DNA of 64,000 bases from an uncultured bacterium (GCA_963845185.1 CAWJRG010000010.1:480001-544000), one strand, 5' to 3'. Counted from the first letter of the stretch, positions 1,904-24,400 are shown. Translations and numbers: made by a program. The notes: generated by a model not told the origin, from the sequence alone.

Positions 1904-1929
1904 CTTACAAAATCTTGTACCCACTCCAG

Positions 1930-2178
1930 TTTAAGGCCGCAAGGCCGAAAACCCCCAATCTCAGCCAGCATCTTCTTAAAATCCTCTGTTTCGTTTGAAA
2001 GAGCTCCTCTAAATCTGACTTAACCTTCTTTTGTCACCGCTGTAACATAACACATGTTCTTGTACACATCAACACCGAAATACAATATACGGCACCTCCT
2101 ATGTTTTTAATGTTGTGGGTGCTAACGCACGCCGCGTTACCATTATACCTGGGGGGTGCCTTCTTTTCATATTACATC
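1930..2178 (-). mobile_element. Degenerate IS110-family relic (non-coding left end plus transposase N-terminus)
   Basis: After AGGAGG, the frame from 2088 reads ILYFGVDVYKNMCYVTAVTKEG*VRFRGALSNETEDFKKMLAEIG. This resembles the RuvC-like DEDD start (Y.G.D..K) of IS110 transposases; internal stop at 2022-2020, truncated. Boundaries approximate. Confidence 0.65.
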
Positions 2179-2241
2179 TCCCTAAATAGGGAAAGGGGCG
2201 GGGGTGCGGGTGCATTCATGGTGATGCATTATTATTTCACT

Positions 2242-5589: not shown

Positions 5590-5624
5590 CCGGTTTTTTC
5601 TCGCTCAATAGTTTTTAAACCCGG

Positions 5625-7799: not shown

Positions 7800-7899
7800 G
7801 ATTCTTCCCGGGATAGTGTTTAAGCTCCGGGAGTTATTTTCTCTCGGTGATGGAACTGATTTTTATGGGGTTTTCAATACACTCTGCCACAAAAATGAA

Positions 7900-10473
7900 T
7901 CACTGCGCGACTACCAATACAGCTGAAAAAGCCGGAACAAGGATTTTAAGTTTCGCACCCGATGTTTTTTGAATCCCCGAAACCACAAGCCGTTTGCCGG
8001 AATCTTCGGTGAAAAAGTAGGTATTGTATGAAGTGGCGCGGGCCGGAAGGGCAATGGTGGTGTCAAAGGCCGTATCATGATTCTTGTTTACCAGGACCAC
8101 GAAAGTCTTGGTGGCGTCCCTGGCGCCGAAGGAATAAAGGTCCGGTGAGGAACTGGTGGCGCTCACAGTCTTCCCATTCACTTTGGACCCCTTGCCGTCG
8201 TAATTGCCGTAAAGCCGGTGGGCTAAAAACAGGTAATTGTCGGGTTGTGCCCCGCTCCAATCGCAGGCCATGTCCAGCCCTTCCCGCATGAAGATGCCGA
8301 GTTTGACGGTTTCAATCAGTCCTCCATGGTAATAGTGCGGGCCGGCGGGATAATATTCGGTTATGGAATACTTGGTGCCGGGATAATTCTCCGCGATGAT
8401 CTTTTTCATCTTGGGGATCATCCCCACAAAGGGATCCCATAAGTACGGTTTGTTGGCGGAATTTGCGCACCAGCTTGCCGGGTCCTCAAAGGTCGGATCC
8501 CACCAAACCCTCAGGGCCTCAAACTGTTTGGGCGTGACCACTGGATCGTAGGGATAGTCCCCATTCATGCTGATCGTGTTGCCCTTACTATCAGTGTCCC
8601 AAACATCCGGGCAGCCGTGGTTGTCCAGGTAGTCGATGAGCCGTATGCCTGCCTTTTCCGAGAGCTTCTTCATTTGCCTCAGGTAATACACCACCTGCGG
8701 AAGATTTCCATGTGCCTTGCGGTCGGTCCACATTTCATGGCTCTTTTTCTTGCTGTCCTCCACGTCAAATTCATTGATACCGCCTGGATTATAGTCCCAG
8801 TTCGAGCCTGCCAGTTCCATGACACCCCAGCCGCTCCAGCCGATCACTTTAGCGCTGGGATCAGCTTCTTTCACTGCCTGGGCGTACTTGGCGTTCAGGT
8901 CCACGAGTTGGTCATAGCTTATGCCCTTGGGCCAAACGTCACGATGGTTGGCTATCCAGCACCCGGGCTCATTGTCCATCTGGTAGAACTTCACCCCGCC
9001 TTTGGAAGCTGTCCCGAATAGCTTCACAATGGTTTTGACCCATTCCTTCTGATATTCCGGGTCGGACGGCACATAGTTGTAGTTTGGGTCGTTGTCACGG
9101 ATGTTTTTGCCCCCGGGCAATATGCCGTTTCCCGCGCCCTGCCCGTCAGTGGACGTTTGGTCGGGATATTTGGATGTCGGAAAGGAACAAAGTCTCGGCC
9201 CGTCTTTAGACACTGACTTGGCTACCCATCCGGTGGTTGGAATGGTGATGATGGACTGGCAGCCTGCTGAAAAACTATCGGTGATGAACTTGGCATAATC
9301 CTTGTCCTTTTCCTGGCCGCTTTCCGGTGGGCTGCCGGAGTTCAGGAAAAACCAGTCTCCGCCCCGGTTGGTCGAGTTCTCTTTCCAGTTATAGTTGGAA
9401 GTAGCGTTTCCTCCCCAGCGGTTCACGGTTCCGCCCAATTGTTTCAGCTTATCACTATCCTGGTAGTTGTATCCCCAGAGGTAGGGTGAGATGGGACGAC
9501 CGGGCTTGGATAAGAGCGATATTGAGGCTGACTTTATAGAAGCAGACTCAGCGGTCACCGTAACAGTTTCGTAAGATGAGGTTTCTTTCTCATTTTGCGC
9601 CGCCACGGCCACGAGGTGCGGGCTCCCTGCAGACAGCAAGCCGGACTCGATCTTCACCTGCCGTTTGTCAGCTCCCTTTACCTGGGCCGTATCCTTCCCG
9701 TCTATAGTCACTATGTACTGCTGGATGCCTTCGTCGCTGGCCTTGTCCCAGATGAGCATCACGCCTCCCGGCACCCGGTACCACCCGAGGTTTTCCACCG
9801 GCGTGACCAGCGCGGTGTCGGTCACGTAAATTTTGTCGAAATGCACGTAAACCGGCTTGTTCTCGGGAAAATCACCCGTTAAATTGATATTAAGGGTTTT
9901 CATGTTGGTTGAGCTCATTTTGGAAAAATTCGGGAACGAAGCAAAAGGGATGACCACCCGCGTCCAGGTTTCGCCGATTTTCTTGCCTTCGGCGTAATTG
10001 CTTAGTTTGACCGAACCGGAATCTACGTCGCCGCTAAGAGCAGCCTCGAAATCCACCCCCGGGGAATTGGTCCTCACGTACATTACGAGGTTTTTTGCCT
10101 TGGAAAAATCCTGGCCCGACCATGATCCGTTGAAAGCCACACCGCCGCCCGCCCACTTCTTATCCCAATGCTTGTTGTCGCCCTGGGTGACCCATGTGAA
10201 CTCAAACGAAAGGCAGTTGCCGTCGTTGTTATCGCTGTCGAAAATGACCCAGCTCGCGTTATTGTTTGTGATCCTGGATTCTATTTTCTGGTTGCAGGGG
10301 TCGGACCGCAAAATAAATTTATGCTGGTCTCCCATGCTGACAATGCTTACGCCCCCTTTCCCGTCCTTTCCGGACGAATCTGCCCAGCAAGGGCCGTAAA
10401 AGGTGACGTCCTCGTCGCTCCATGCGATTGCAGAGATCAAAACAAAAGAAACGATCAAAAAAAGTTTCCGCAT
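7900..10473 (-). CDS. GH44 endoglucanase/xyloglucanase with N-terminal CBM-like and Fn3-like domains
   Basis: NRWGGNATSNYNW, YQMDNEP..W...HRDV, SITEY, YGNYDGKGS. Best start is ATG 10473 (AAGGAG RBS; signal peptide MRKLFLIVSFVLISAIAWS); an alternative start lies at 10590. The ORF-track start at 10635 falls within a GH62 relic. Confidence 0.87.
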   Translation of the reverse strand: MRKLFLIVSFVLISAIAWSDEDVTFYGPCWADSSGKDGKGGVSIVSMGDQHKFILRSDPCNQKIESRITNNNASWVIFDSDNNDGNCLSFEFTWVTQGDNKHWDKKWAGGGVAFNGSWSGQDFSKAKNLVMYVRTNSPGVDFEAALSGDVDSGSVKLSNYAEGKKIGETWTRVVIPFASFPNFSKMSSTNMKTLNINLTGDFPENKPVYVHFDKIYVTDTALVTPVENLGWYRVPGGVMLIWDKASDEGIQQYIVTIDGKDTAQVKGADKRQVKIESGLLSAGSPHLVAVAAQNEKETSSYETVTVTAESASIKSASISLLSKPGRPISPYLWGYNYQDSDKLKQLGGTVNRWGGNATSNYNWKENSTNRGGDWFFLNSGSPPESGQEKDKDYAKFITDSFSAGCQSIITIPTTGWVAKSVSKDGPRLCSFPTSKYPDQTSTDGQGAGNGILPGGKNIRDNDPNYNYVPSDPEYQKEWVKTIVKLFGTASKGGVKFYQMDNEPGCWIANHRDVWPKGISYDQLVDLNAKYAQAVKEADPSAKVIGWSGWGVMELAGSNWDYNPGGINEFDVEDSKKKSHEMWTDRKAHGNLPQVVYYLRQMKKLSEKAGIRLIDYLDNHGCPDVWDTDSKGNTISMNGDYPYDPVVTPKQFEALRVWWDPTFEDPASWCANSANKPYLWDPFVGMIPKMKKIIAENYPGTKYSITEYYPAGPHYYHGGLIETVKLGIFMREGLDMACDWSGAQPDNYLFLAHRLYGNYDGKGSKVNGKTVSATSSSPDLYSFGARDATKTFVVLVNKNHDTAFDTTIALPARATSYNTYFFTEDSGKRLVVSGIQKTSGAKLKILVPAFSAVLVVAQ

Positions 10474-10617
10474 AAATTCTCCTTTGATTTTTTTCAGGCC
10501 GGTTTTTTCAACAAAAGTTTTTCGCAGAGATACAAGAACTATAAATAAAGCTAAAACAAAAATCAAAACAGTCATAAAGAAATTATTCATTTTCAAACCT
10601 CCAAAAGATAATTGCAT

Positions 10618-10746
10618 TTTATAATTATAAAACACAACGGATGGGTCCTTTGCCGAAACAACGTCGCAGCCCTTTTCAGGCTAAGGAAGTATGACAGGCT
10701 CGCCTGTTGTGCAAGCAAACCTTGTTTTTTCGTTGAACTCCTTCAT
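10618..10746 (-). pseudogene. Degenerate duplicate of the GH62 5' end
   Basis: MKEFNEKTRFACTTGEPVILP*PEKGCDVVSAKDPSVVFYNYK versus GH62 MKEFNEKTRFKWVSSGPIILPQPEKGREIVCSKDPSVVFYNDK; CAG>TAG at codon 22. Confidence 0.85.
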
Positions 10747-10750
10747 ATTT

Positions 10751-11719
10751 TTACTTTTTGTGAACTGCCTTTAAGAGCCCAATCTTGTACGGCAGCAGGT
10801 GATATTCCATGCCGTTGCTATCTGGGTCGTGGCCCTGGAAAAGCATCTGCAAATTTTCAGGGTCTATGGTGAGGGTCTCATCATAACTGTCCCTTATAAG
10901 CTCTCCGTGGCTTATGTCTAATGTCCACGGCTTTACACCCTGCTCGAATGTCACATTGCTTAAGCCGGCAAAAGGCTCGTCCCATGTGGCTGCCTGCTCT
11001 TTCCATTCTCCGTTCAGCGAATCCGCGACAAAGCTCTTATAATACCTTTCCCAGTCAGGAAGCTTGCTCGCCTCAATTATCGTAAGGTATTTTTTTTGGC
11101 CCTTTATGCGGTAGGTGCAGCTTCCTTCAAATAATTCGTTCCTTTCCTTATTACATAGGACCACTTCGGGCTCGCTCATAGCGTTCGGGAAGTCCTCAAT
11201 CCTTGTCCTGCTGCGGTAAAAGCGGCCGTTATTGCCGGAAAAGAAAAGATAAACGTGTTTGTCGTCGCATATTATCCAGTGATCAAGCCATGACCCGTCC
11301 ACAACGCTTTTCGGTACCCCATCGAAAAAGTCATGGGGAGCGGTCCATCCATCAGGGTTGTCTATATTGTCGTTTGTCGAGTACTGCGGTTGATTACCTT
11401 GGAATATCATGTACCATTTTTTTTGCGGCGTAAAATAAAAAACTTCCGGAGCGCAGTGGTAGCCGAGCAGATTTGGGTTGTTGTCCTTGGGGTATGCCTT
11501 TGCGGACTTCGCGTCAGCCCAGTCCTTAAAGCTGATAAACTGCATGCTCCAGTAATGTGCCCTGTCGCATGTGGTATAAAACACGTACCATTTGTCATTA
11601 TAAAAAACAACTGACGGGTCCTTTGAGCAAACAATTTCGCGGCCTTTTTCAGGCTGCGGCAGTATAATAGGCCCGCTTGAGACCCATTTAAACCTGGTTT
11701 TTTCGTTAAATTCTTTCAT
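10751..11719 (-). CDS. GH62 alpha-L-arabinofuranosidase (no signal peptide)
   Basis: SKDPSVV, CAPEVFYFTPQKKWY, LDHWIICD, LFEGSCTY, WTLDISHGELIR, LTIDPENLQMLFQG. Confidence 0.92.
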   Translation of the reverse strand: MKEFNEKTRFKWVSSGPIILPQPEKGREIVCSKDPSVVFYNDKWYVFYTTCDRAHYWSMQFISFKDWADAKSAKAYPKDNNPNLLGYHCAPEVFYFTPQKKWYMIFQGNQPQYSTNDNIDNPDGWTAPHDFFDGVPKSVVDGSWLDHWIICDDKHVYLFFSGNNGRFYRSRTRIEDFPNAMSEPEVVLCNKERNELFEGSCTYRIKGQKKYLTIIEASKLPDWERYYKSFVADSLNGEWKEQAATWDEPFAGLSNVTFEQGVKPWTLDISHGELIRDSYDETLTIDPENLQMLFQGHDPDSNGMEYHLLPYKIGLLKAVHKK

Positions 11720-11743
11720 TTTAAATCCTTCGCTTGCATTTGT

Positions 11744-11766
11744 AAAAAACAGGATTTCAACCCTGT
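11744..11766 (-). terminator. Putative intrinsic terminator between the SBP relic and GH62
   Basis: Minus strand ACAGGGTT-GA-AATCCTGT followed by a T run. Confidence 0.45.
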
Positions 11767-11767
11767 C

Positions 11768-12112
11768 TCAATATTTTTTGTTTTGCTGCTCTGTATCTTT
11801 GAGACTTTCTGCCAGATCCTTGAAATTCCTAACCTCGACAAAAAGCACGTCAGGCAAGGCGCCTGCCGCTGCCTCGGTCATGACTTTTTCCATGTACGGG
11901 CTTCCCGAAGGCGCGCGTTCCTGGGTCACTGTAATGCTTTTTGTTTTTTTCAGGTCTTTTATGATTTTCTCCACGTTCTTCATCTCTATTACGTCACCCC
12001 AGTGCATGACGCGGATCCTGTTTTTGTCCTGTGTCCCTCCACACGAGTAAAAAAATAGCCGTGGTTAGTAGTAAGGCAACAAATAAGCATAAAAATATTT
12101 TAACTTTTTCAT
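11768..12112 (-). pseudogene. Truncated, frameshifted paralogue of the SBP at 474-1781
   Basis: Near-identical MHWGD.IEMKNVEKIIKD...ITVTQERAPSGSPYMEKVMTEAA.G.LPD.LFVE, then it stops. The signal-peptide region from ATG 12112 has two compensating homopolymer frameshifts. Confidence 0.85.
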
Positions 12113-12182
12113 TTTGCGCCTATGTAAATTGAATTTTCAATACATTTTCAGAAACAAGCTATAACATACATCGGCAAAAATT

Positions 12183-12797
12183 TTAGTTTGCAGTGACATC
12201 ATCAATATAAATGTTGCCGGACCACGCATTCGTGCCGTCGCTGACTATTTGAATCCCGATCTTCGTGACATCACTGTAATTAGACGACGACATCAGGTAA
12301 GTTATCTGGCTCCAGGTATTTGGTGTGAGATGCCCTGATATTGGCGTTGTCCCGCTCCAATAACTGCCGGCGCTGTAAAAAATATACAATTGGTATGAAT
12401 ATGTCGTGGGGAAATTACTTGGTAAAAATACGTTTATTGTCAATGTTTTTCCCTGAAGGTTCGACGGGCTGGGATTGCCTATTTCAAACTCTCCGCTTTT
12501 GGCCGTGGCTGGGAAAGAACATGTAAGCTGCACACAATAACTTCCGGATACTACGGTTCCGCCGGGTACCGAGCTCGCCGGCACATCTGTAGCGCCGGTG
12601 ATTCCAGGATCCCCGCCAATGTTCCAGCCGTCAAGGCTGCCCTCAAAGTCATAACAAAGGTAAGGTGCCGGTGTTGCCGTGGGGGTCGGCGGCAGAGGCG
12701 GCGGCATGGGCCCGTCCTGCTGCTTTCTGCAGCTTGAAATGAAAATCAGGCACATAACTACAGAAATTGCGATAATTACAGGTAATATTTTTTTCAT
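12183..12797 (-). CDS. Lipoprotein with Pro/Thr linker and CBM-like (galactose-binding-like) beta-sandwich
   Basis: Lipobox FISSC; PPPLPPTPTATP linker; YDFEGSLDGW...W.QI...KIGIQ...IYIDDV pattern. Confidence 0.7.
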   Translation of the reverse strand: MKKILPVIIAISVVMCLIFISSCRKQQDGPMPPPLPPTPTATPAPYLCYDFEGSLDGWNIGGDPGITGATDVPASSVPGGTVVSGSYCVQLTCSFPATAKSGEFEIGNPSPSNLQGKTLTINVFLPSNFPTTYSYQLYIFYSAGSYWSGTTPISGHLTPNTWSQITYLMSSSNYSDVTKIGIQIVSDGTNAWSGNIYIDDVTAN

Positions 12798-12855
12798 GTC
12801 AAAACCTCCTCGTGATAGTGTTTATTTTTGCAAGCAAGCATAAAACGCCCTGTCA

Positions 12856-12904
12856 TCCCCCTTTAACAAAGGGGGAAACTGATCCCTCCCCCTTAACAAG
12901 GGAG
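12856..12904. repeat. Two CCCCCTT-n-AAGGG palindromes (small intergenic repeat)
   Basis: TCCCCCTTTAACAAAGGGGGA and CTCCCCCTTAACAAGGGAG. Confidence 0.5.
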
Positions 12905-13007
12905 TTAAATATCCCTGTGGGATATGTAACGGGTAGAAGTCATATTGATATTCTAAAATATTACTTTTCTACCCAACAGGAGGGGGGTGCCCTTCCTATT
13001 GTTTTTA

Positions 13008-15113
13008 TTAAAACTTCATTGTCATTTTCGCGTCTATTTCCTGCGCGTTAAAGCTGTTCGAATCGTTTTTGTTGTCTTTTATGATTGTATTTGTATAAGA
13101 CATGCCTATTGTTGCTGCGCTGATAAACTGGTAATCAATTCCTGCTCCGTAGCTCGCTATGTTTTCGTCGTATTCCTGCCTGTTCTGGTATCCCCATCTG
13201 GTTCCGGTTATGTAAGTATACGGATATTCAGACCCTTTAAATGCAATATCTTTATATCCCGCTGCAAGCACCCATTTTTTGTCAGGGCTGTATTCAATGC
13301 CCATGTCTGTTATCCCCGACCTCAAATCCACGTCGTTGCCGACAGGCGCATCATTGAACGTGTATTCGTTTTTATATCCGCCCGAAAGCATAAAATCCCA
13401 TAATTTTAATTTTGCGCCCGCTTCCAGGGTGTTGAATGTCCTGGCATAATACGCCGAATCCCCGGGAAGGTACGAAATGATTTCCTCCAGGTCCGAGTAT
13501 TTTATGTAAGGCATTAAAATGCCGTCAAAATATTTCCCCGAAAGCTTGAATATCAACCCCTGCCTGTCCGGCGTTGCGTCGCCGTAAGGCATAGAGTTGT
13601 TTTCATAAAAAACATAAGGCATCAGGTTCGATCCGGGCTGAAAATACGAAGCCACAATCGCAGGATTATACCTTGTAAAAGGATAGATAAAGCCGCTAAC
13701 CGAGTACGGCGTACATGTAAGCGATGCGCTCCATGTATTGTTTTGCGTTACATAAGGAAAATTATTTTGGGCGTCATACATCCTGGTCTGGGCCGCGTAT
13801 GCGGTAAAAGAGTTGCCGTTTACAAAAAATGCCGCTTCAATTTTTGTATCGTTGTATTCTGTCTCTGCCGCAATTCTAAAAGCAGTGTCGCTTATATATT
13901 TGTTCTGCCAGCTCTGTCCGGCGTCACTGCCCGAGTAATAATCCGACGCGGCAAACTCACCTTCTACTTTCGCCATGCCCATTATATTGATTTCTCCGTT
14001 AACCGAGCCGACATAGTTGTCAAGTACCGGGTTGCCGTTTACGCTGCCCGTGTCCCGCGCGTCCTTTATTTCCACGAAATTCACGCCGAGTTTTAATATA
14101 TCCTTTAGTATTTCTGAGGATATCCTGCCCGCGCCCATGTACTGGTCGTGAGTGTACGGAATTATGATGGTGCCTGACTGGCTGAGGCCGGGTATTACCG
14201 AGTAATTTGTAAAATTTGCCGCAGCAATCCTGGCAGCCATTATATCAAATGAAACATCCGGCCCGAACAAATTTATCGTTGTGCTTGCCTTGCCGCCTGT
14301 AACGGGCCAGGAGTTATCGCCAAGGTAAAGTTCCGCTTTGTTCATGTCCCTTTTATCGGAAAAAACCTTTGATTCATCCGGCCTTTCATCGTCCACCGCC
14401 CATATTGTATACGGAGTGAGTTTTGCCTGAAAATCTCCAATTGAAAATTTTATCCGGTAATCTCCGTATATGGAAATCCTCTTTGTGACCACAATACTCT
14501 GGGATCCCCAGAACCCGCCGAACACTTCCTCCAGCCTTAAAACCGCGTCCATGGATAATCCTTTCAAAGCTATCAGGTTAAAATCAAGGTCAACATATTC
14601 GGTAATAGGCCTGAACCTTTTGGGCGCGGCGCCGGCGTATGTACTGTTATTGCCGTAAAGCAGCAGGTCGGTCATATACGCGCCTGCATCTCCGTTTATG
14701 CGCAGCCCGGTTTTGGAAAGCAGCTTGTCCTGTTTTTCCTTAAGCTGCTGTTCCTTGTTCTGCTCTTCCTTTAATTTAAGGTCTATGAGCGTCTGCTCAA
14801 TAGTGCTCAGCTTCTGGCCTGCTTCCAGCATGTCGGTCTGGAACTCTTTTACCAGGTCAAAGACTTTGTCTATGTTTTCATTTGTAGCCAGGTCGCCTGT
14901 CGCGTCGCCGAGCAGGTTGGTTACGGCGTTATTGATGTATGCCACTACATCCTGGCGTGAGAGCTGCTCCTTATCAAGCGGGGTCGTTATAACCTTCGCA
15001 TCCGCCAGGGACTTTATTGCATGGAAAGTGTCGCTGTCTATTGCCTCCTCTGCCGCAATAATCAAAGCCGGCACGAGTAAAACCGCTAAAACATATAATG
15101 TCTTTTTCAACAT
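13008..15113 (-). CDS. Putative outer-membrane beta-barrel with N-terminal SLH-like and coiled-coil region
   Basis: Signal peptide; FHAIKSLADAKVI...LSRQDVVAYINNA (SLH-like); Q/K/E-rich coil; alternating beta-strands; C-terminal Phe (KMTMKF). Confidence 0.7.
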   Translation of the reverse strand: MLKKTLYVLAVLLVPALIIAAEEAIDSDTFHAIKSLADAKVITTPLDKEQLSRQDVVAYINNAVTNLLGDATGDLATNENIDKVFDLVKEFQTDMLEAGQKLSTIEQTLIDLKLKEEQNKEQQLKEKQDKLLSKTGLRINGDAGAYMTDLLLYGNNSTYAGAAPKRFRPITEYVDLDFNLIALKGLSMDAVLRLEEVFGGFWGSQSIVVTKRISIYGDYRIKFSIGDFQAKLTPYTIWAVDDERPDESKVFSDKRDMNKAELYLGDNSWPVTGGKASTTINLFGPDVSFDIMAARIAAANFTNYSVIPGLSQSGTIIIPYTHDQYMGAGRISSEILKDILKLGVNFVEIKDARDTGSVNGNPVLDNYVGSVNGEINIMGMAKVEGEFAASDYYSGSDAGQSWQNKYISDTAFRIAAETEYNDTKIEAAFFVNGNSFTAYAAQTRMYDAQNNFPYVTQNNTWSASLTCTPYSVSGFIYPFTRYNPAIVASYFQPGSNLMPYVFYENNSMPYGDATPDRQGLIFKLSGKYFDGILMPYIKYSDLEEIISYLPGDSAYYARTFNTLEAGAKLKLWDFMLSGGYKNEYTFNDAPVGNDVDLRSGITDMGIEYSPDKKWVLAAGYKDIAFKGSEYPYTYITGTRWGYQNRQEYDENIASYGAGIDYQFISAATIGMSYTNTIIKDNKNDSNSFNAQEIDAKMTMKF

Positions 15114-15195
15114 TTAATTACCTCCGTGTATCACAATTTTCAATTCTCAATAAAAATGTTTTCATTGAATATTGATAATTCTTAATTGTCAATTA

Positions 15196-17673
15196 TTAAA
15201 AATAGTCCTTTACTTCCGCGTATACTTCCCAGCCGTTGAAATTATTTGCCGGAACCTCGCTGTCCTTGTGCGTAAATTCCTTCAGCCTTAAATATAGCGA
15301 TGCCCTTGAGCCGAAATCATAGTCAAACCCTGTTCCGTACGCTGTGTCAAGGTAATCAATCCCGTAAGGAATTACATTGTTCGACGCCCATCTTTCCACT
15401 GCGTAAAAACCGATTAAATTAACGCTGTTTATTATATTATACGCGAGGCACCCTGAAGTTATGTTCTGGCATAAAAGCCTGTTGGGGTTATAATCCACCA
15501 TTAAGCTGGCGTCATTGTTTAACGTGGTCAATTCGCTGTAAACCATGAGTAAAACATCCCTGTTGTATTTTATCAGCTTGTTGAGTTCATACCTGAAATC
15601 AAGCGTCAGATTGTTATAAAACTTATCGGTATTGCCGGTTACCGCGCTTGAAACCATGTATTCGGTGTTTGATTCCCATATAGCAGTCGCCAGTCCTCCC
15701 TTATTAAAATGAATAATCTGGTTTGTTAAGAGAGTATTGTCGGCAGTAGGCGCTATTCCGTACCTGTTTTTGTTATAATTTAAAAACGGCTGGTAAATAT
15801 TGCTCCCCAGCCATCCGTAATTGCTTCCAAGGAAGTTAAAATATACGGCTCCATCCCTGACATCCCCGTTTAAAAAGTGCGTTGAAAAGAACATGTTGCC
15901 CGTATCTTTGAGCTGGCTCGATACCCCGTAATTCAGCATGAACATGCCGTTTGGTATATTCACTTTCACGGTTGCCTCAATCTTATTTTCATTGTTTGAC
16001 ATTGTCGTAGGATCCTGGGCAGAAGTAATGTTTTTTATGTCTACCTGGTTTGTCGTATGATTTATCTCTTCATAAGTCGTATTATTGACGCCTGAGCCAG
16101 CCGAAAAATAATCAGAGTCTATCCTTGTGTATCTTAATTCAAGTTCCATGTTTTTTACCGGCAGCGCGGGAAACGCGTCTATAAAAAGAGCGCTCCCTGT
16201 CTGTGTAAAAGGCTTTACCGGGACAGCATTCCAGTTGTCATAAAAATCGGGATCGTTCGCGCATTTTCCGTAATTATTCGCTATTGCGAATTCTACGTTT
16301 GTTTTCATTAACTTTATCACATTGGTTTTTACGCTTGCGCCTGCCACGGTGTTGGCTATAGTAGAGTCAGTCGGCTGCCCGCTTGGCGCCCCGGCGTATA
16401 TCTCACTTTTTTCATTTGATTGATTGTAAAAATTAAGCGACCAATCCGTGTCATAAAGTCCGGGCAGGTTTTGCCTGCGGGTCAACTGGCCGGCGTATTC
16501 ATAAAGAAAATTCTGGTTATAAGTTACTTTGCCGGCCATCAGCTTGAGCTGGCCGAGCCCGAAGAAATTGCTGTTTAAAACATCCGCTCCCATCCACGGG
16601 TGCATGGACCATCTATCATCCAGATGTATAGAGTAATTGTGTATAAGGTTCTCGAAATGATCCTTTGTTTTTTCCTCACCGGCATAGATGTCCCTGTCAA
16701 AAATTATAGGCCTCAATGTTATGCCGGACGAAACGGTAAATAAACTTACGTTATCCCAGAACATTCCTGCAGTTATTTTCCAGTTGTACAAAGTAAGAGA
16801 TACGGTGGAAGTGTTGTAATTTCCATTGGCACGCGGGTCTGAAGTTCCGCCTTCTCCTACATTATATCCAAGAGATAATTCAACATTATCCATGGGCGTA
16901 CTGTCTATGGTCATGCCAAGGATGGTGCTGAGAGCCGATATGCGCATATTGCTCGCGCCGGATGATTCCATGTCCGTCCACCTTGATGTTAAATTGCCTG
17001 TTATCTTTAACGGCGGCTGGTCTGAGAAAACCGTATTTTTAAAATCATTTTCTATGTCTCCGATTTCCGCAAGCAGCGCTTCCACGCTTTCGCTGAACTT
17101 GTCTGTTTCCGGCTGGTTAATATATTTTTCCGTATCCGGCAGCTCGCTGAGTTCATTCGCGAACCTGCCGGCGTAAGCTGTAAGCGTGTCGCTGTACTCT
17201 GCCCCTGCCTGCCGGCTTACGGCTTGAGCCGTACCCGGTGTGGCTGCACGGGAAGAATTTTTGACTGCTTCCGATATATACACGGCAGCTTCTTTATTTG
17301 TTATGGCGTTGAGCTTGAAATATTTCGAATCTTCGGATTTTATCAGGCCGTCATTTGCCATATTGGAAAAGTCCGTATAAATCCTGTCTGATTGCGGGAT
17401 TATTAATTCATTTTTAGGCAAAACCGCAATTGTTGCAGCCGGTACCGGGGTTATTGCAATCACCGGGGTTGGCGGCGCTGTTGGTGTTTCTATCATTGTG
17501 TGCGCGGGCTTTATCCGCGCCTTTCTGTGTTTCTGCTTTACCACAGTTACCGGAGTTTGAATTGTTATGATGGTTGGGGTTGTTGCGGGTGTTGGATTTT
17601 TTTTCTTCGAACATGCAGTCGTAAATAAAATACCTATAAGAATTATTACGGCAACCGTAAACAATTTTTTCAT
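15196..17673 (-). CDS. Putative lipidated outer-membrane beta-barrel with Pro/Thr linker and SLH-like/coiled-coil region
   Basis: Lipobox FTTAC; IYTDFSNMANDGLI...ITNKEAAVYISEA; beta-strand C-terminus ending WEVYAEVKDYF. Confidence 0.68.
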   Translation of the reverse strand: MKKLFTVAVIILIGILFTTACSKKKNPTPATTPTIITIQTPVTVVKQKHRKARIKPAHTMIETPTAPPTPVIAITPVPAATIAVLPKNELIIPQSDRIYTDFSNMANDGLIKSEDSKYFKLNAITNKEAAVYISEAVKNSSRAATPGTAQAVSRQAGAEYSDTLTAYAGRFANELSELPDTEKYINQPETDKFSESVEALLAEIGDIENDFKNTVFSDQPPLKITGNLTSRWTDMESSGASNMRISALSTILGMTIDSTPMDNVELSLGYNVGEGGTSDPRANGNYNTSTVSLTLYNWKITAGMFWDNVSLFTVSSGITLRPIIFDRDIYAGEEKTKDHFENLIHNYSIHLDDRWSMHPWMGADVLNSNFFGLGQLKLMAGKVTYNQNFLYEYAGQLTRRQNLPGLYDTDWSLNFYNQSNEKSEIYAGAPSGQPTDSTIANTVAGASVKTNVIKLMKTNVEFAIANNYGKCANDPDFYDNWNAVPVKPFTQTGSALFIDAFPALPVKNMELELRYTRIDSDYFSAGSGVNNTTYEEINHTTNQVDIKNITSAQDPTTMSNNENKIEATVKVNIPNGMFMLNYGVSSQLKDTGNMFFSTHFLNGDVRDGAVYFNFLGSNYGWLGSNIYQPFLNYNKNRYGIAPTADNTLLTNQIIHFNKGGLATAIWESNTEYMVSSAVTGNTDKFYNNLTLDFRYELNKLIKYNRDVLLMVYSELTTLNNDASLMVDYNPNRLLCQNITSGCLAYNIINSVNLIGFYAVERWASNNVIPYGIDYLDTAYGTGFDYDFGSRASLYLRLKEFTHKDSEVPANNFNGWEVYAEVKDYF

Positions 17674-17854
17674 TTATAATAACTCCTGTTCAAATCAGTC
17701 ATAAAAAAAAGGATTTTATGCTTTATTTTAATCCCTTAATTTTTTAAATTATAAACCCAAGCCGTTGATACAGGTATGTCTTCTTTCTTCATTAATCCCT
17801 TTCCCTGTATTTTAAGCCGGTTAAATTCTTTAAATTAGAACCACATTCCCTGTA

Positions 17855-17882
17855 ATTATAAATGATATTATATTTATGTCAA
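17855..17882 (-). promoter_or_regulatory. sigma70-type promoter for the leftward glycan operon
   Basis: TTGACA-16 nt-TATAAT on the minus strand. Confidence 0.6.
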
Positions 17883-17965
17883 TAAAATTTATCGGAAAAT
17901 TGCCAAAATTTAGCTTGACTGAATCAGCAAATCATTATAGCTTGTTTAAAAAAAATAAACAAATT

Positions 17966-18036
17966 GTAGGGACGATTCGCGAATCGCCCAAAAACAAAGA
18001 AAATAAAAACCAGGGTAATTCATGAATTACCCCTGC
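17966..18036. repeat. Inverted doublet of GTAG-type REP-like palindromes
   Basis: GTAGGGACGATTCGCGAATCGCCC and, inverted, GCAGGGGTAATTCATGAATTACCC. Confidence 0.65.
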
Positions 18037-18059
18037 AAAAATTAAACGAGGAGGCAGTT

Positions 18060-19718
18060 ATGAAATTTAATAGCAGGGATTTAATTTTTAAAACCATTTT
18101 TTTATTTGTTTTATTCTTTGCATTTTCAATCACAGGTTTTTGCGCTGTGGCTGACATCAGCATAAACGCTGACAAGGCAATACGTGTGTTGCCAAACGAG
18201 CTTTTCGGTCAGAATATGGCGGTATGGGAAAAAACAGGCGACGGTTCAGACCCGGGTTATATAGACGCGGTCAAGGCTATGCAGTGCGCCATTGTCAGGT
18301 TCCCTGGCGGCAGTTACGCTGATATTGTTGACTGGGAGAACATACCCCAGTGCAAACTGTCATGGGTGCCGGTGACAATGCAAAAAGGCATTGCCTTTGC
18401 CAGGGCCTGCGGCATACAAATGCAGATAATAGTTAATTACGCCGGCAACTGGTGCGACAAGGACCAGGGCCATGACGCAGCCGTGAAAAAAGCCGCGGAC
18501 TGGGTGAAATACATGAACGTTACCAACGGCGGCGCTTATCCCGTGAAATACTGGGAAATAGGCAACGAGACTTTCGGCAGCGGTGAAAGCGGATTCTGGA
18601 GCGACGACGAGGAGGGCGGCACGCGCTACGGCAACTATTTCGTGGACTTTTATAAAGCCATGAAAAAAGTGGACCCGAAAATACAGATAGGCGCCCAGTG
18701 CCAGTTTGACCATGCAGGTTTCACCAAAGGCGAGCTCGAGGCCCTGAAAGCCAAAAAAGTCGTCCCTGACTTTTTTATAATCCATGTTTACACCATCTGG
18801 CTGACTGACAGGTTAAAGGGAATGTCTTGGGACTCTACCCTTTACGCGTCAAACCCTGTGCTGGACGCCAGGATAATGGACAATGTAGCTCAGGGTATTT
18901 CAATCACCACCCAGACTGACCAGCTTGTGGAAAAATACTTCGGCAAAAAATACGTTGGAAAAATACCGTACTGGTGCACTGAGTGGCGTTCAATACTGGA
19001 TTACAAGTTTGACGAGTTTGTGGACACTATGTTCTCCGCACAGTTTCTGCTCGAGATGGGCAGGCTTGGCTGGCAGGGCGCAAATATATGGGATTTAAAA
19101 AACGGATTTGACGTGAAAAAGGGATGTGACTTTGGCCTGCTCCGCACAGGCGTGAACAAGGACGTTGCGGACGACAATCCAATAGACAGCCCGCGCCCTA
19201 CATATTATATATTCCCTTACCTGTCACGCGTGTTCGGCAGGCAGATGGTCGAGTGTACAGCGCCTGCATACGTGCCGAACGCAGTTCCCGGAAAATACCC
19301 GGTTGACTGGAACCTGAACACAGTTACAGGCAACAGGATCCGAGCGTGGGCTTCAAAGGATGCATCCGGTAACCTGACTATCTTTGTGGCAAATAATGAT
19401 TCCAATAATAGCGCGACCGCAAACATCACGATAAACGGATTTAACGCGGACAAGCAGGGGAAAATATGGCTTTTTGAGCCCTCGGGAAACACTTATTACG
19501 GCAGCGACAAGCCTGTCCTGCAGCGCACGCATTTGAAAATAAACGGCAGCGAAGACCCGTCCATCAGTTCCCTGCCCGGTGACGGCAAGACCATAGATAC
19601 CGGGAATGTTTTCAAGGTTGATTTGCCTGCTGCTTCAATGGCGCTTATAAAGGTCCCGGCTGCCCCTGTTCCCACACCGGCTTCCGCGCCAGAATCAGTA
19701 ACCAAACCAGCGAAATAA
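18060..19718 (+). CDS. Secreted clan GH-A glycoside hydrolase (GH51-like)
   Basis: Signal peptide; IVRFPGGSYAD, VKYWEIGNE (acid/base), WCTEW (nucleophile); C-terminal beta-sandwich (LPAASMALIKV). Family uncertain. Confidence 0.75.
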   Translation: MKFNSRDLIFKTIFLFVLFFAFSITGFCAVADISINADKAIRVLPNELFGQNMAVWEKTGDGSDPGYIDAVKAMQCAIVRFPGGSYADIVDWENIPQCKLSWVPVTMQKGIAFARACGIQMQIIVNYAGNWCDKDQGHDAAVKKAADWVKYMNVTNGGAYPVKYWEIGNETFGSGESGFWSDDEEGGTRYGNYFVDFYKAMKKVDPKIQIGAQCQFDHAGFTKGELEALKAKKVVPDFFIIHVYTIWLTDRLKGMSWDSTLYASNPVLDARIMDNVAQGISITTQTDQLVEKYFGKKYVGKIPYWCTEWRSILDYKFDEFVDTMFSAQFLLEMGRLGWQGANIWDLKNGFDVKKGCDFGLLRTGVNKDVADDNPIDSPRPTYYIFPYLSRVFGRQMVECTAPAYVPNAVPGKYPVDWNLNTVTGNRIRAWASKDASGNLTIFVANNDSNNSATANITINGFNADKQGKIWLFEPSGNTYYGSDKPVLQRTHLKINGSEDPSISSLPGDGKTIDTGNVFKVDLPAASMALIKVPAAPVPTPASAPESVTKPAK

Positions 19719-19747: not shown

Positions 19748-21361
19748 GAGTCTGTCTCAAAACTCTTTTAAACGCCTTGCATTGCCTACACTTATCGCGT
19801 TTTTTAGCCCCTATCTTTATTATTTCTCTTCTTTTCGATTTGTGGTTCTTTTCTTGTCAGGTTGCGAACCTTAATTTAACCTTACCTTCCCTCCACAAGG
19901 CATACATTGTCTTTATGTTATGGGCGGCGCATATAAAAGACCATTGTGTTTTTACGCTTTCGATTCCTCTAACACTAAATCTTGTAAAACCAAGTACGTT
20001 TTTTATACGTCCCAATAATGGCTCAACTATTGTTTTTCTCTTTCGAAGCTGTTCTTTCCAGTTATTGACCCTAGCTTCTTCTCTGTATATTGACACTATC
20101 TCCTCATACTCATGCTTATTTGCTTCTATTATCCTTCCGGATTTTACCTTGCTGCATTCGTATTTATAAATACAATCCCTATGATCCCCGCATCGGTATA
20201 TCATTGTCTCTTTTCCGTTTTTCTTCTTCCTTATACTGGTATATTCAAGCCTGCCATTTTTAGGACATACATATTCGTTTTTTTCTTTGTCGTATTTAAA
20301 ATGCGCTTTGCCATACGGCCTATCGCTGTCATCCTCCGGCAAGTTAACAATTATATTCCTTTTTTCTTCTTTGGCTTTTGCCAGTTCTTCCGGTGAATAA
20401 TACCCTCCATCCGCAAGCGTTACTCCTGATTTTTGTCCGGTATTCGACTCTGCTTTTTCTATCATATCATTCAGCATGTGAGCATCCGATTCCTTGTTTG
20501 TCACATTCTCTGCCACAATTATCTGTTTCTTTGCGTCCACAACAACCTGTGAGTTATATGCCTGTTGCAGTCCTTTACCTCTTGTCATCATGAACCGGCT
20601 GTCTCTATCTGTGGGGTTTTCAGTTGTTTTTCCTTCACTTTTCATACGTTCTATATGTTCTCTTATTACCTGACGCAGTTTCTCCTTTTCCTGCAATTCT
20701 TTTGGCATTCCGCACTTACTTTTGCCCTCTTCATCGTCTTGTTCGTCATTTTTCTCAATTTCCACCATTATTTTGTCTATTTCTCTGTCTAATTCTTGTA
20801 TTTTTTTATTCATGTCTTTTATTGTTTTGGTCTTTTCCTTATTTACATCTGCCTGTATTTTTGTGCCGTCCACGGCTTGAATTTCAAAACCAACCAAATT
20901 GTTGTTTGTTGCCACACGCACCGTCTCCTTCAGTAAAACCCTTATCTGCTCTTTATTTCCTTTAAAAAATCTCCATAGCGTATTATGGTCGGGATGATTA
21001 TTCCCGGTTATCCATATCATCCCCATTGAATCGTAAGTCATTTTTTCAACTTTTCTGCTGCTCTTTTTTCCTTCCAGTATGCCGTACATCCATGCCCCAA
21101 GTAAAAGATCTACAAAATATCCCGGTCTTCCGGTTTCTTCTTCCATTTTAAAACCCATCTCTTCAAGCGGTAATTCTTCTACGAATTCTACGACAAATCG
21201 AGCTAAATGATCTTTTGAAACCCAATCTTCTATTGCCGGTGGCAGTAGATACATTTGATTTCTATCGGCTCTTATCGTTGGCATTTGGTTTCTCCTTCGC
21301 TAAATTTTGAAACCATTATACCATTTATGTCAAAGAATTAAGAGGCTTTTGAGACAGACTC
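19748..21361 (-). mobile_element. IS1182-family insertion sequence
   Basis: Terminal IRs GAGTCTGTCTCAAAA / TTTTGAGACAGACTC; 4-bp direct repeat CCAG at 19744-19747 and 21362-21365; intact transposase. Confidence 0.92.
19857..21284 (-). CDS. IS1182-family DDE transposase
   Basis: LLPPAIEDWV...H, SSRKVE, PDHNTLWRF, AVDGTKI, TDRDSRFM, AYNSQ, LADGGY, RKTIVEP..G.IK. Confidence 0.93.
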   Translation of the reverse strand: MPTIRADRNQMYLLPPAIEDWVSKDHLARFVVEFVEELPLEEMGFKMEEETGRPGYFVDLLLGAWMYGILEGKKSSRKVEKMTYDSMGMIWITGNNHPDHNTLWRFFKGNKEQIRVLLKETVRVATNNNLVGFEIQAVDGTKIQADVNKEKTKTIKDMNKKIQELDREIDKIMVEIEKNDEQDDEEGKSKCGMPKELQEKEKLRQVIREHIERMKSEGKTTENPTDRDSRFMMTRGKGLQQAYNSQVVVDAKKQIIVAENVTNKESDAHMLNDMIEKAESNTGQKSGVTLADGGYYSPEELAKAKEEKRNIIVNLPEDDSDRPYGKAHFKYDKEKNEYVCPKNGRLEYTSIRKKKNGKETMIYRCGDHRDCIYKYECSKVKSGRIIEANKHEYEEIVSIYREEARVNNWKEQLRKRKTIVEPLLGRIKNVLGFTRFSVRGIESVKTQWSFICAAHNIKTMYALWREGKVKLRFAT

Positions 21362-21498: not shown

Positions 21499-24400
21499 CT
21501 ATTTAAATATTATTATGCACTTTATTTTTGAACGGGCTTTTCTGCCGTTCACGCCTGATGCTTCTATATAATAATAGCACGAACTGCTCGCGAAGCTGTT
21601 AAACTGGCTTACGTCTTCAGGTTTTATTTTTAATCCTGCAGTATCATAACCGCTCAGCTGTATCCTCTTTACAAGCCTGTAAGATTGGGTATATATCATC
21701 ATGTATGCGTCGTTTACATCCTGTGTTAAATAATATGACACCATAAAATTCCCGCCTCTTTGCACTAAAATCGGGTTCGGATAAACCTTCTGGTCATTTA
21801 CCTCAAAAGAAGATTGCGTGGCTGCAGTTGTCGGCGTAACTGTCACAACAATGCTTTGTGTTGCCGAAGGTACTGTGCCAGTTGCCGTCTGTGTCTCAGA
21901 AGGGGTCAAAGTCAGTGTCATAGTCGCTGTATAAGAATATGTTCCGGTCATGGTCTGTGAAATTGTAGCAGTATAAGAATATGTTTCCGTAATAGTCGCA
22001 GTTCCGGTAAATGAACTTGTCGGGGTGGAACTGTATGTCTGCGTATATGTCGGCGTGATTGTAAAGGTTCCCGTCGGCGTCATGGAAGACGTGCGTGTCA
22101 TAATAAACGTCTTTGTCATTGTCTCGGTCATTGTCACCGTATAAGTATCTGTCGGCGTCGAAGTATTTGTTCCTGTTGCCGTGCTTGTGTCAGTCGCTGT
22201 GGGAGTGCCTGTAAGTGTTATTGTCCATGTCGGCGTCTCTGTATAGGTTGGCGTCTCGGACACGATTGGGCTTTCCGTGCTTGTCGGCGATATTGTGAAT
22301 GTGTCAGTCGGGCTGCAGACCTCTGTTTCCGTCGGCGTCGGCGTCTCTGTATAGGTAGGCGTCTCGGACACGATCGGGCTTTCCGTGCTTGTCGGCGATA
22401 TTGTGAATGTATAAGTCGGGCTGCAGACTTCTGTTTCTGTAACAGTCAAAGTATAGGTAGGCGTCTCGGACACAATTGGGCTTTCCGTGCTTGTCGGCGA
22501 TATTGTGAATGTACCAGTCGGGCTGCAGACCTCTGTTTCTGTTGACGTCGGCGTCTCCGTATAGGTCGGCGTCTCGGACACAACCGGGCTTTCTGTTTCC
22601 GTCTGGGTCTCTGTCGCCGTATATGTTGGGCTGTCAAACTCGGTTTCAGTTGCAGTCGGCGTATATGTATAGGTTGGCGTTTCTGATAAAACCGGGCTCT
22701 CTGTTTCCGTCTGGGTCGCCGTCGGCGTATATGTGGGGCTGCAAACCCCGGTTTCGGTTACCGTCAAGGTTTCTGTCGCTGTATATGTTTCTGTGGGAGG
22801 CGGAGTACTCGTCACTGTTCCTGTGTTTGTGGCTGTTGCCGTCGGCACTATTACAGATATGTCGTCCACATACCATCCGCGGAAATCATTTGCGTAACCG
22901 TCCACCGAATCAAATTCAAACCTGAACATGACATCCTGCCCGGCATAGGCGCTTAGCGGTATGGCAACCTGGTACCATACGTCTTCTGTGCCGTAAAGGT
23001 TGTCTATTTTTACCCAGCTTGCGCCCATGTCCGTGGAAATATAAATGTTCCTTAAGTCATAATCCGGCGAATCCTCGGTTTCTTCCCAGCTTAAGAAAGT
23101 CAGGTATGACCCGGCCTGTATATTGTAATAAGCCTGGGTTATCATGCTGCCGTATGTCCTGTCCCCTGTGTCGTAAGTAAGGGTTGAATCAATGCCGTAG
23201 TACCATACCAGCGGGCTCGTGGACGGGTCTCCCCCGGGCGCCTCGCTGTCCGGCACCTGGTGCCACAGCCCTAAAATTATCACGGTTGACGTGCATGTCG
23301 GGGTGTACGTGGGCGTGCTGGACATCGTGCTTGTAATGCTTGGCGTAAATGTCGGCGTCCATGTAAGTGTGCTGGACATTGTGCCTGTAACGCTCGGCGT
23401 TATTGAAGAAGTCAATGTGCGCGTATTTGTGGCCGAAACATATACCGTACTGGTGCTGGTGCCGGTAAATGTGCCTGTCGGCGTAATGGTCGGCGTCGGG
23501 CCTGCCAGTGTAATGTCGTCCAGGTACCATCCGCGGTAATCGTTTGCATAGGCGTCCACCGTGTCAAACGTAAATTTAAACCTGACGTTCTGGCCAACGT
23601 ATGCGGACAGGTCTATGGTCACCTGGTGCCAGACATTTTCAATGCCGAAAAGGTTGTATATCTGCGCCCAGGTTGTGCCACCGTCAGTTGAAATATAAAC
23701 ATTCCTCGTGTCATAATACGGCGAATTTTCAGTCTGTTCCCAGCTTAAAAAAGTCAGGCTTGAGCCCGGTGCGATGTTGTAATAAACCGGCCCTATAAGG
23801 TCGCCCGTGTTTCTCGCTCCTGTGTCATAGGTCAGGGTTGAATCCAGGCCGTAATACCACGAATCCGGGCTTGGAGATGTCCTGCCCGGCGGTGTCTGGC
23901 TGTCCGGCACCTGGTGCCACAGTCCTGTTGCTGTATAGCTTCCGCCTATGGGAGTTATTGTAAATGTCGGCGATATTGTGCTCGTACGGGTGATTGTCAT
24001 TGTCGGCGTATTTGAATATGTAACCGTCATGGTGTACTGGGAATATGATACCTTGTCTATCCAGCCGCAGTCGCTGCCAGCATCACCGGAAGCGTCCTTG
24101 GTATACATCCACCTTATAACATGGTCGCCCGCCCCAAGCGTATATGTCTGTAAAGTCCACCCGGCTTCGCCTGAAATAGAGCTGGTCAGCACGCCGTCTA
24201 TGAAAAGCTCCAGGTAATCGCTGTTCAGTTGCGAGGAAACCTTCCAGTAAAAGCTCAGGTTTCCCGGCCCTGCATAGTCTGTCTCCACATAGCTGTACTG
24301 GCTTGCCGTAACATGGCCGCTCTGCCCGGCTGAGCCGCCGTAGTAATAAGTGGACGCCTCTCCAAACCACGCGGCTGCGCCGTAGCTTGAAAAAACCGTG

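Follow-up and report, generated by a model that had tools for sequence, protein, structure and literature searches.

The outer-membrane proteins OmpM of Veillonella parvula (OmpM1; 8BYM, 8BZ2) and SlpA of Deinococcus radiodurans share a domain order in which a signal peptide is followed by an S-layer homology (SLH)-type domain, a helical stalk, and a C-terminal barrel. According to the available portion of PMC10628300, OmpM acts both as a tether and in the uptake of nutrients, and OmpM-like barrels, which have 16 to 30 strands, play a role in nutrient uptake. The SusC/SusD loci of Bacteroidota place a barrel gene beside one or more glycan-binding lipoproteins and the glycoside hydrolases (GHs) for one substrate, and the sugar porins LamB, CymA, and ChiP are TonB-independent barrels whose inward loops and aromatic residues guide oligosaccharides. 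In Cytophaga hutchinsonii, the genes chu_1276 to chu_1280 specify an endoglucanase, a pair of outer-membrane proteins, and a pair of glycan binders with a beta-sandwich fold; a barrel is predicted for CHU_1276, which has matches to TonB receptors, as described in the accessible text of PMC12016534. In this study, we analyzed a gene pair encoding two proteins, P0001 and P0002, in the genome of an uncultured bacterium (GCA_963845185.1). The window is a 64,000-nucleotide stretch of contig C10 (CAWJRG010000010.1:480001-544000), and positions are counted from its first letter. The two proteins have the domain order of OmpM and SlpA, and their genes stand at the head of a string of carbohydrate-active enzyme (CAZyme) genes, a setting that follows the same logic as the SusC/SusD loci. 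On balance we favor, with some reserve, the reading that P0001 and P0002 form an OmpM/SlpA-like hetero-oligomeric outer-membrane channel that is specialized for glycan uptake and independent of TonB.

P0001 (15196-17673, minus strand, 825 amino acids) is the larger barrel protein and P0002 (13008-15113, minus strand, 701 amino acids) the smaller; we refer to their families as A2 and A1, respectively. They are followed by P0003 (12183-12797, minus strand), a 204-residue lipoprotein with a lipobox Cys at residue 23, a Pro-rich linker, and a beta-sandwich that resembles galactose-binding domains and carbohydrate-binding modules (CBMs). A preliminary description of the window had placed these three genes at the head of the CAZyme genes, and we found the corresponding open reading frames (ORFs) there, on the minus strand. 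It had also called the two large proteins unrelated, which proved wrong. An hhalign comparison of the two family profiles runs from end to end, covering 627 columns at 17% identity (probability 98.1%, E 1e-13), and by this profile alignment P0001 and P0002 are distant paralogs. The sandwich of P0003 matched Pfam Mann_GBD_bact exactly at the cut-off (E 6e-6, 27 bits), and a homolog with 41% identity occupies the same position in a related locus, L010.

Neither large protein matched a Pfam family in Pfam and NCBIfam scans. The lone library match was a weak one to PorV/PorQ, confined to the final strands of P0002 and well short of the cut-off (E 9e-6; 25.5 bits, with 90 required), and phmmer searches of PDB sequences with single P0001 or P0002 gave nothing meaningful. 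AlphaFold2 models built from family alignments show N-terminal helices, a long helix, and then a large beta-barrel in both proteins. In the P0002 model (predicted local distance difference test [pLDDT] 77.0, predicted template modeling [pTM] score 0.69), helices at residues 27-38, 53-69, and 78-97 precede a long helix at 102-134 and strands from 137 to 700. Its parts are a signal peptide (residues 1-20), an SLH-like domain (21-100; 14814-15053), a stalk helix (101-135; 14709-14813), and a barrel (137-701; 13011-14705). The P0001 model (pLDDT 79.6, pTM 0.70) is disordered at residues 17-89, with helices at 97-142, 151-176, and 193-212 and strands from 222 to 824. Here a signal peptide with a lipobox (1-21; 17611-17673) and a disordered Pro/Thr linker (22-89; 17407-17610) lead into SLH-like helices (90-145; 17239-17406), stalk helices (146-215), and a barrel (222-825; 15199-17010). 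Both barrels end in Phe, as had been claimed from the sequence.

If the turns on the periplasmic side are taken to be short and the outer loops long, each barrel is predicted to have about 22 strands, compared with 16 in OmpM1 and 30 in SlpA, and its geometry is nearest to that of the 22-strand SusC and TonB receptors. Among 48,161 chains, the best VIA-align match of P0001 was the SusC-like 5t3r_D (BT1762; Z 15.0, 393 residues, root mean square deviation 4.0) and that of P0002 was FyuA (4epa_A; Z 14.9, 382 residues, root mean square deviation 4.3), and OmpM1 (8bym_A) was found among the matches at Z 13.0 and 11.3. Foldseek ranked MtrB first for P0002 (6r2q_B, E 4e-11, TM-score 0.35); for P0001 it put PirA and FimD at the top, and its matches included the SlpA complex of Deinococcus. 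The predicted fold is thus a large barrel of the size of a TonB receptor minus the plug. Candidate assignments to DUF6029, Alginate_exp, and Wzi suggested by Atlas were rejected, as none of the 68 family members matched any of these families at E values up to 0.1.

The lack of a plug is consistent across the families. No Plug, TonB-receptor, or SusD family was found in the 13 ORFs scanned (474-37259), no PF07715 or PF00593 match was found in P0001, P0002, or the 68 family members at E values up to 0.1, and no Plug, TonB_dep_Rec, or TonB-box region was found in 28 distant relatives at E values up to 0.01. An ordinary TonB receptor is therefore ruled out. The genome is 99.4% complete and includes BamA, six readily detected Plug-domain receptors, and 10 matches to OmpA-type domains. 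SusD (PF07980) had no match in it, while the control in Bacteroides thetaiotaomicron was positive; the early claim that both the plug and SusD are missing thus held for the locus, and for SusD it held for the whole genome. Unlike the SusC/SusD systems, the pair has no plug, TonB box, or SusD, and its periplasmic end is an SLH-like stalk. In the absence of a plug and a TonB box, transport by the pair would be passive, unlike that by SusC/SusD. Elsewhere in the window (50364-56958, minus strand), genes for TonB (TonB_C), ExbB, a 567-residue TonB-receptor-like barrel, and a 996-residue TPR protein lie in a row, so the organism has a TonB system, yet no TonB receptor is placed in its glycan loci.

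The preliminary description had assigned the pair an OmpM-type architecture of SLH-like domain, stalk, and barrel, and both the models and the profile searches bear this out. The best PDB sequence match of both family profiles was 8bz2_A, aligned residue by residue. For the P0001 family this match covered residues 15-82 with an E value of 4e-4; the E value for the P0002 family was 0.11. The portion of PMC10628300 on hand describes 8BZ2 as a crystal structure of the stalk of Veillonella OmpM1, made up of its SLH domain and coiled-coil region. Weaker support comes from a language-model comparison, in which the named Atlas clusters nearest to P0002 were SLH or SLH-porin proteins of 635-870 amino acids (0.93-0.96), and from Pfam SlpA_C, which was touched, below its cut-off, by 3 of the 30 P0001-family members. 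In the models, stalk-like helices lie directly before the first barrel strand (102-134 in P0002; 151-176 and 193-212 in P0001). The Pfam SLH family (PF00395) itself had no match in P0001, P0002, their N-terminal pieces, the 68 (30 + 38) family members, the 28 distant relatives, or the whole genome, and we consider "degenerate SLH-like" a reasonable label for the N-terminal domain. The pair thus differs from OmpM in having an SLH domain that Pfam misses and, in P0002, a short stalk helix of 33 residues. It also differs in consisting of two (elsewhere three) diverged paralogs rather than a homotrimer and in being encoded in CAZyme/CBM loci. OmpM/SlpA-type proteins are found in diderms (Terrabacteria) that lack tethers of the Pal/OmpA type, and their wall ligand is a pyruvylated secondary cell-wall polymer, made by CsaB, or polyaminated peptidoglycan. 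The genome studied here lacks CsaB and has OmpA-type domains and TonB receptors.

The N-terminal domains of the two proteins are predicted to associate, as they do in OmpM and SlpA. We ran one complex prediction with two copies of P0002 (residues 21-140) and one of P0001 (85-225), a ratio chosen by analogy with gene triples of one P0001-like and two P0002-like genes, and it scored 0.77 compared with 0.02 for the best control. Among solved complexes, 116 of 157 attain that mark, as do 2 of 215 mismatched pairs, in a calibration set that differs from the present job of three chains with their own alignments. The runs shared at least 90% of their contacts, with a partner pLDDT of at least 66, and the predicted contacts join residues 90-95 and 118-128 of P0001 to residues 86-103 of P0002. 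Binding of P0001 and P0002 through their N termini is thus supported, though not demonstrated, by the model, which may only mirror their likeness to known structures, because the OmpM stalk trimer and SlpA have already been solved. The SLH-like domain may also tether the pair to peptidoglycan. PF04230, the CsaB-type pyruvyl transferase, had no match in the 99.4%-complete genome, so wall anchoring by this domain cannot use the CsaB route.

The pairing of the two genes is conserved. A word-index search found 46 relatives of P0002, the named ones being Goldbacteria or carrying metagenome-assembled genome (MAG) labels, and an exhaustive phmmer search with P0001 gave 66 matches. A word-index search with the A2 profile, whose candidate list was saturated, gave back just 4 proteins, all of them already known, and is uninformative about distant relatives. 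We surveyed one genome per species among Goldbacteria/FCPU426 genomes, which gave 22 loci that are related by descent. In all 18 loci that have upstream DNA, the A1 gene is immediately preceded by an A2 gene on the same strand (whole in 15 and cut by a contig end in 3); the remaining 4 loci begin at the A1 gene. The next gene downstream encodes a small secreted protein in 18 of the 19 loci with downstream DNA, assigned by Pfam to CBM9_1 (13), CBM_11 (2), or Mann_GBD (1) or a family-less lipoprotein (2); in the exception, L026, the next gene encodes a BNR/Sortilin protein. Pfam GH catalytic domains occur in the flanks of 12 of 19 loci. The gene-neighborhood survey that had been suggested as a check therefore shows a tight link between the pair and CAZyme/CBM genes. 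Coupling to an ATP-binding cassette (ABC)-type binding protein, also proposed earlier, is seen in the six of six xyloglucan-type loci (defined below) in which an SBP_bac_8 gene lies within two genes of the pair. For 10 of the surveyed loci (L011, L012, L014, L015, L017, L021, L022, L024, L025, and L027), the public labels read, for example, "Spirochaetia bacterium" or "Candidatus Methylomirabilis sp."; their synteny and 39-47% identity with Goldbacteria/FCPU426 loci suggest that such labels probably do not give the true lineage.

The genome holds exactly two such pairs. The second, on contig C5 (L007), lies in the order GH9 plus CelD_N, an 854-residue protein, a 751-residue protein, a CBM9-like protein, a 305-residue protein, a CBM11-like protein, and FadL-like and CarboxypepD_reg proteins. 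The downstream genes of this locus (L007 3097-9226) include two barrels with weak FadL/Toluene_X matches (301 and 470 amino acids) and two CarboxypepD_reg-repeat proteins, one of them with FlgD_ig, and upstream are ORFs of 1905 and 2436 amino acids with several CBM_11 repeats. CBM9_1 and GH9 have a low background in this genome, with four and eight matches, respectively, and one match of each flanks the C5 pair, which counts in favor of the link to glycan genes.

The two pairs represent two lineages that are linked to different substrates. Locus types were labeled from neighbor content and not from the tree. Cellulose-type loci contain GH9 or GH8, a CBM9-like protein, and CBM11/CIA30-like proteins. 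Xyloglucan-type loci contain a CBM lipoprotein, SBP_bac_8, BNR/Sortilin proteins, which we take to be GH74-like, and GH29, GH31, GH2, GH36, and galactose kinase/transferase genes. The small partner is lipidated in seven of seven xyloglucan-type and in none of 14 cellulose-type loci. We built a maximum likelihood tree from 18 complete P0002-family proteins and 2 distant outgroups, setting aside six loci whose genes are partial. In this tree, a single change splits the rows of xyloglucan type (7) from those of cellulose type (11). The branch has support values of 89/89, the split recurs in 100% of 200 bootstrap trees, and none of 500 label shuffles gave as few changes. One locus of each type is present in five genomes, namely, the genome studied here and the MAGs carrying L009/L023, L010/L013, L012/L021, and L026/L029. 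The single-change split and the presence of both types in five genomes indicate that the duplication is old and that each copy has kept its own enzyme set. Such lasting fidelity to an enzyme set is the behavior of a substrate-specialized component and is not expected of a housekeeping porin.

Conservation within P0002 points to three loops, whose topology was read from the DSSP string of the model. The most conserved is L3 (residues 231-268; 14310-14423, minus strand; "KLTPYTIWAVDDERP..."), which includes a helix, and it is accompanied by L2 (residues 196-206), which contains "FGGFWG," and L7 (residues 433-516; 13566-13817, minus strand), a conserved 84-residue insert with little beta-strand that holds "PYGDATPDRQG" and has 17 aromatic residues. 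Mean column conservation is 0.80 in L3, 0.79 in L2, and 0.69 in L7, compared with 0.60 overall and 0.32-0.48 in six other loops. The motifs quoted in the preliminary description were found in the translations and fall on conserved family columns. Conservation of L2, L3, and L7 is what one sees in loops that line a pore by folding inward. On the predicted fold, L2 and L3 are a candidate pore-constriction element, and L7 is a candidate sugar-binding or plug-like element; with 22 strands and no plug, the barrel needs loops of this kind, or else a partner protein, to narrow it. The proposed mode is that of LamB, CymA, and ChiP, all three of which are among the fold matches. These sugar porins differ from the pair in that they have 14-18 strands, lack a stalk in the periplasm, and do not come as paired paralogs, and a sequence relationship between them and the pair was not found.

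Relatives of the pair extend through the phylum. Our survey of 99 genomes of the GTDB phylum is descriptive, as related genomes are not independent. The P0002-family profile matched 63 of the 99, strongly in 23 of the 24 genomes of its own order and weakly in 27 of 31 genomes of one large family, with no match in four families (27 genomes). A1 and GH9 occurred together in 54 genomes, A1 without GH9 in 9, GH9 without A1 in 10, and neither in 26. In 11 sampled loci of distant clades, the relatives form pairs or, in six loci, triples, and the SLH-like motif is kept in all. In a triple, a gene for a protein of about 257 amino acids is followed by a single P0001-like gene and two P0002-like ones. 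Some of these distant relatives lie beside GH44 (L033 and L034), CBM11, CIA30, and CBM9 genes (L039), GH42 and a LacI regulator (L037), or a CBM30-like gene (L032). The triples at L031 5287-12516, L040 6308-14277, and L041 6812-14226, which come from a family that belongs to this GTDB phylum but is distant, stand in a conserved housekeeping context. Por_Secre_tail (type IX secretion system [T9SS]-type sorting) and FlgD_ig domains occur in neighbors of some loci (L014 51-887, L017 132-3185, and L040 2268-5096), which hints at a T9SS-like display route in the phylum.

Several observations weigh against a glycan-specialized channel. The count of 22 strands was read from DSSP strings and not from coordinates. 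The VIA-align ranking falls gently from Z 15 to 11 over TonB receptors, ushers, porins, AlgE, LptD, and OmpM1, so that these are generic large-barrel matches, and Foldseek returned generic barrels only, with TM-scores of at most 0.38. Loop L7 is modeled poorly, with pLDDT values below 50 at residues 459-478, and its position is unsure. These genomes are rich in CAZymes, which makes flank content alone weak evidence; in the genome studied here, CBM_11 is frequent (20 matches). No ABC permease gene was found near the binding protein of the window, and the CBM9-like partners of cellulose-type loci have no lipid anchor (0/14), so that their surface location is unexplained. The near-universality of the P0002 family in its own order also fits a major porin or tether. 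Three of the 11 distant loci have no CAZyme and lie among genes for a tRNA methyltransferase (TRAM), LepA, signal peptidase, and HemN; together with the nine genomes that have the barrels and no GH9, these contexts indicate a general ancestral role. The ancestor may have been a general hetero-oligomeric OmpM-like protein, and the pairs of the Goldbacteria order would then be derivatives that were recruited into glycan loci.

The main rival explanation is that the pair serves as a general porin and ties the outer membrane to the wall, as the housekeeping equivalent of OmpM or SlpA, whose adjacency to CAZyme genes mirrors the lifestyle of the organism. It draws on the architecture shared with OmpM, for which the accessible part of PMC10628300 gives both tethering and nutrient uptake, on the presence of the pair in 23 of 24 genomes of the order and of only two such sets in the genome studied here, on the housekeeping contexts of L031, L040, and L041, and on the nine genomes with barrels and no GH9. 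We regard it as rather unlikely, given that two old paralog lineages each stay with their own substrate-specific gene set and that a CBM-like gene follows the pair immediately in nearly every locus. The genome's 10 OmpA-type wall-binding domains could do the tethering, neither CsaB nor a Pfam SLH domain is present, and the barrels are absent from four families of the phylum (27 genomes). A plug-less barrel of 22 strands needs filling, and one that carries or holds CBM-like proteins or GHs would be an export or surface-display device, comparable to LptD-LptE, MtrB-MtrA/C, ushers, or Slam-type systems. That the MtrB sheath is the top Foldseek match of P0002 and that ushers (PapC and FimD) and LptD rank high would fit this idea, as would the unlipidated CBM9-like partners (0/14), which, should insoluble cellulose be their target, need a route to the surface. 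TonB receptors and porins are matched just as well by fold, however, and the T9SS-type tails in neighbors at L014, L017, and L040 suggest that export takes a different route. The conserved loops, rich in aromatic residues, fit contact with sugars, and the binding protein of the xyloglucan-type loci points to import, so that we find an export role improbable.

Two further proposals concern the ancestry of the barrels. The preliminary description had suggested that motifs of P0001 and P0002 resemble CHU_1276 and CHU_1277 of Cytophaga hutchinsonii, and the cluster logic is indeed alike as far as PMC12016534 describes it. The chu_1276-chu_1280 genes form an atypical cellulose polysaccharide utilization locus, a one-strand cluster without SusD, organized like the C5 locus and 13 cellulose-type loci. 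In Atlas, the closest neighbors of the P0001 barrel are unnamed clusters from Fibrobacterota (0.96), and one weak C-terminal match came from a cellulolytic Chitinispirillales bacterium. The likeness is one of organization only, and the available portions of PMC12016534 and PMC5553014 describe no SLH-like stalk for the CHU proteins. No Cytophaga or Bacteroidota protein was among the named matches of any search, and the 20 of the 66 P0001 matches that were looked up had Chitinispirillales and Firestonebacteria as their only organism names. We consider true homology with the CHU proteins very improbable. We give even less credence to the idea that the pair are degenerate SusC-like TonB-dependent transporters that have lost the plug. 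Their best structural alignments are with 22-strand TonB-receptor barrels, including the SusC-like BT1762, but neither the proteins of the window nor their 68 family members and 28 distant relatives show Plug, TonB_dep_Rec, or a TonB box, the N terminus is an SLH-like stalk, and the genuine TonB receptors of the genome are readily recognized.

The N terminus of P0001 is peculiar to this copy. P0001, like P0003, has a signal peptide with a Cys lipobox, which had been noted as unusual for a barrel; the lipobox is real in this protein and is not a trait of the family. Plain signal peptides are found in a homolog with 76% identity (P0049) and in 27 others of the 30-row alignment, in which the second lipobox-like site, "FGAC," belongs to the distant P0063. 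A lipidated barrel as a family trait is thus ruled out by the N-terminal alignment. In P0049 and nearly all other relatives of P0001, the signal peptide leads straight into "IIPQsD..Y.D...MA..GLIKS," and the Pro/Thr linker of about 60 residues behind the lipobox is private to P0001. The site "TTA|C" would suit signal peptidase I too, which makes the lipidation of P0001 uncertain. The first 89 residues (17407-17673) have no counterpart in any homolog; the signal peptide may have been replaced recently, or the DNA may have been rearranged close to the region that bears the transposase.

Downstream of P0003, the minus strand carries genes for a 322-residue GH62-family protein without a recognizable signal peptide (10751-11719), a 911-residue GH44-family protein identified by the Pfam scan (7900-10635), a 724-residue GH29 alpha-L-fucosidase with a CBM6/35 domain (5625-7799), a 1115-residue GH35 beta-galactosidase with a CBM35 domain (2242-5589), and a 435-residue ABC-type solute-binding lipoprotein of SBP_bac_8/SBP_bac_1 with a lipobox Cys at residue 24 (474-1781). 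Both the solute-binding protein and P0003 are lipoproteins by sequence. This GH set presumably fits fucosylated, galactosylated xyloglucan or a similar hemicellulose. GH62 arabinofuranosidases are usually secreted, and a signal-less GH62 protein would fit cytoplasmic trimming of imported oligosaccharides. The binding lipoprotein at 474-1781 is an orphan, the nearest BPD_transp_1 permease genes lying about 200 kb away at C10:682905-684345.

The genes of this locus had been described as an operon. They do share a strand and may form one; a 463-nucleotide gap precedes the GH62 gene. A sigma-70-like promoter sequence, TTGACA-16-TATAAT, with a 12/12 match lies at 17855-17882 (minus strand), about 180 nucleotides upstream of the start of P0001, and is the sole 12/12 match within positions 1-19000; promoter-like sites overall are not enriched (27, compared with 24.8 in shuffles). 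Weak hairpins that resemble terminators separate P0002 from P0003 (12892-12872) and P0003 from the GH62 gene (11865-11851). The hairpin scan likewise shows no enrichment (32, compared with 24.7 in shuffles), which speaks against reading them as terminators or attenuators.

Upstream of the pair, a divergent gene (18060-19718, plus strand) encodes a 552-residue secreted protein with no Pfam family and a match to the NCBIfam arabinofuranosidase ArfA far under the cut-off (E 3e-7). A DDE transposase gene (DDE_Tnp_1_6 and DUF772; 19857-21284, minus strand) separates the glycan locus from a giant ORF of 3867 amino acids (21499-33102, minus strand) with PPC, Big_1, BNR, MAM-like, and weak VWA domains. 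The GC content is 0.51-0.53 across the giant ORF and 0.42-0.46 in the glycan locus.

Under our preferred interpretation of P0001 and P0002 as a TonB-independent glycan channel, the pair would assemble through its N-terminal domains into a hetero-oligomer, possibly of one P0001 and two P0002. Surface enzymes and CBM proteins would hold and cut the polysaccharide, and P0003 would capture glycan at the cell surface. The hetero-oligomeric barrels would then passively admit the fragments, here probably of xyloglucan type, through a loop-lined, substrate-selective pore in which the inward-folding L2, L3, and L7 would supply the constriction and the contacts with sugar. In the periplasm, the lipoprotein solute-binding protein would take over the glycan, and its degradation would be finished by exo-enzymes of the periplasm or cytoplasm, namely GH29, GH35, and GH62, the last of which has no signal peptide.

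We can also speculate, as a more far-reaching version that we find doubtful, that the pair or triple is a hetero-trimeric, plug-less translocon of 22-strand barrels on an SLH-derived stalk, which threads long chains of glycan or large oligosaccharides, from cellulose or xyloglucan, through the outer membrane with the help of its CBM partners and without energy from TonB. If true, it would be a third design for the import of glycans across the outer membrane beside SusC/SusD and the small sugar porins, and it would place an OmpM-type architecture in a lineage with OmpA-type tethers and TonB receptors, outside the supposed range of OmpM. The available part of a 2021 preprint (10.1101/2021.05.31.446380) gives OmpM as absent from Gracilicutes.

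For Goldbacteria, the accessible text of PMC7031533 reports binding of cellulose and active cellulases; the words "outer membrane," "porin," "SLH," "operon," and "uptake" are absent from that text, and transport is mentioned only twice. Our literature searches found no description of such a module or of Goldbacteria outer-membrane proteins of this kind, and no paper that brings together an SLH domain, a coiled coil, and a beta-barrel with TonB-independent polysaccharide utilization. For the passage of cellulose and hemicellulose fragments through the outer membrane of cellulose specialists outside the Bacteroidota, the module described here, a conserved pair with substrate-linked paralogs, is a concrete candidate. 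For the evolution of the cell envelope, it suggests that an OmpM-like family may have diverged into the subunits of a hetero-oligomer in genomes that also have OmpA domains and TonB systems.

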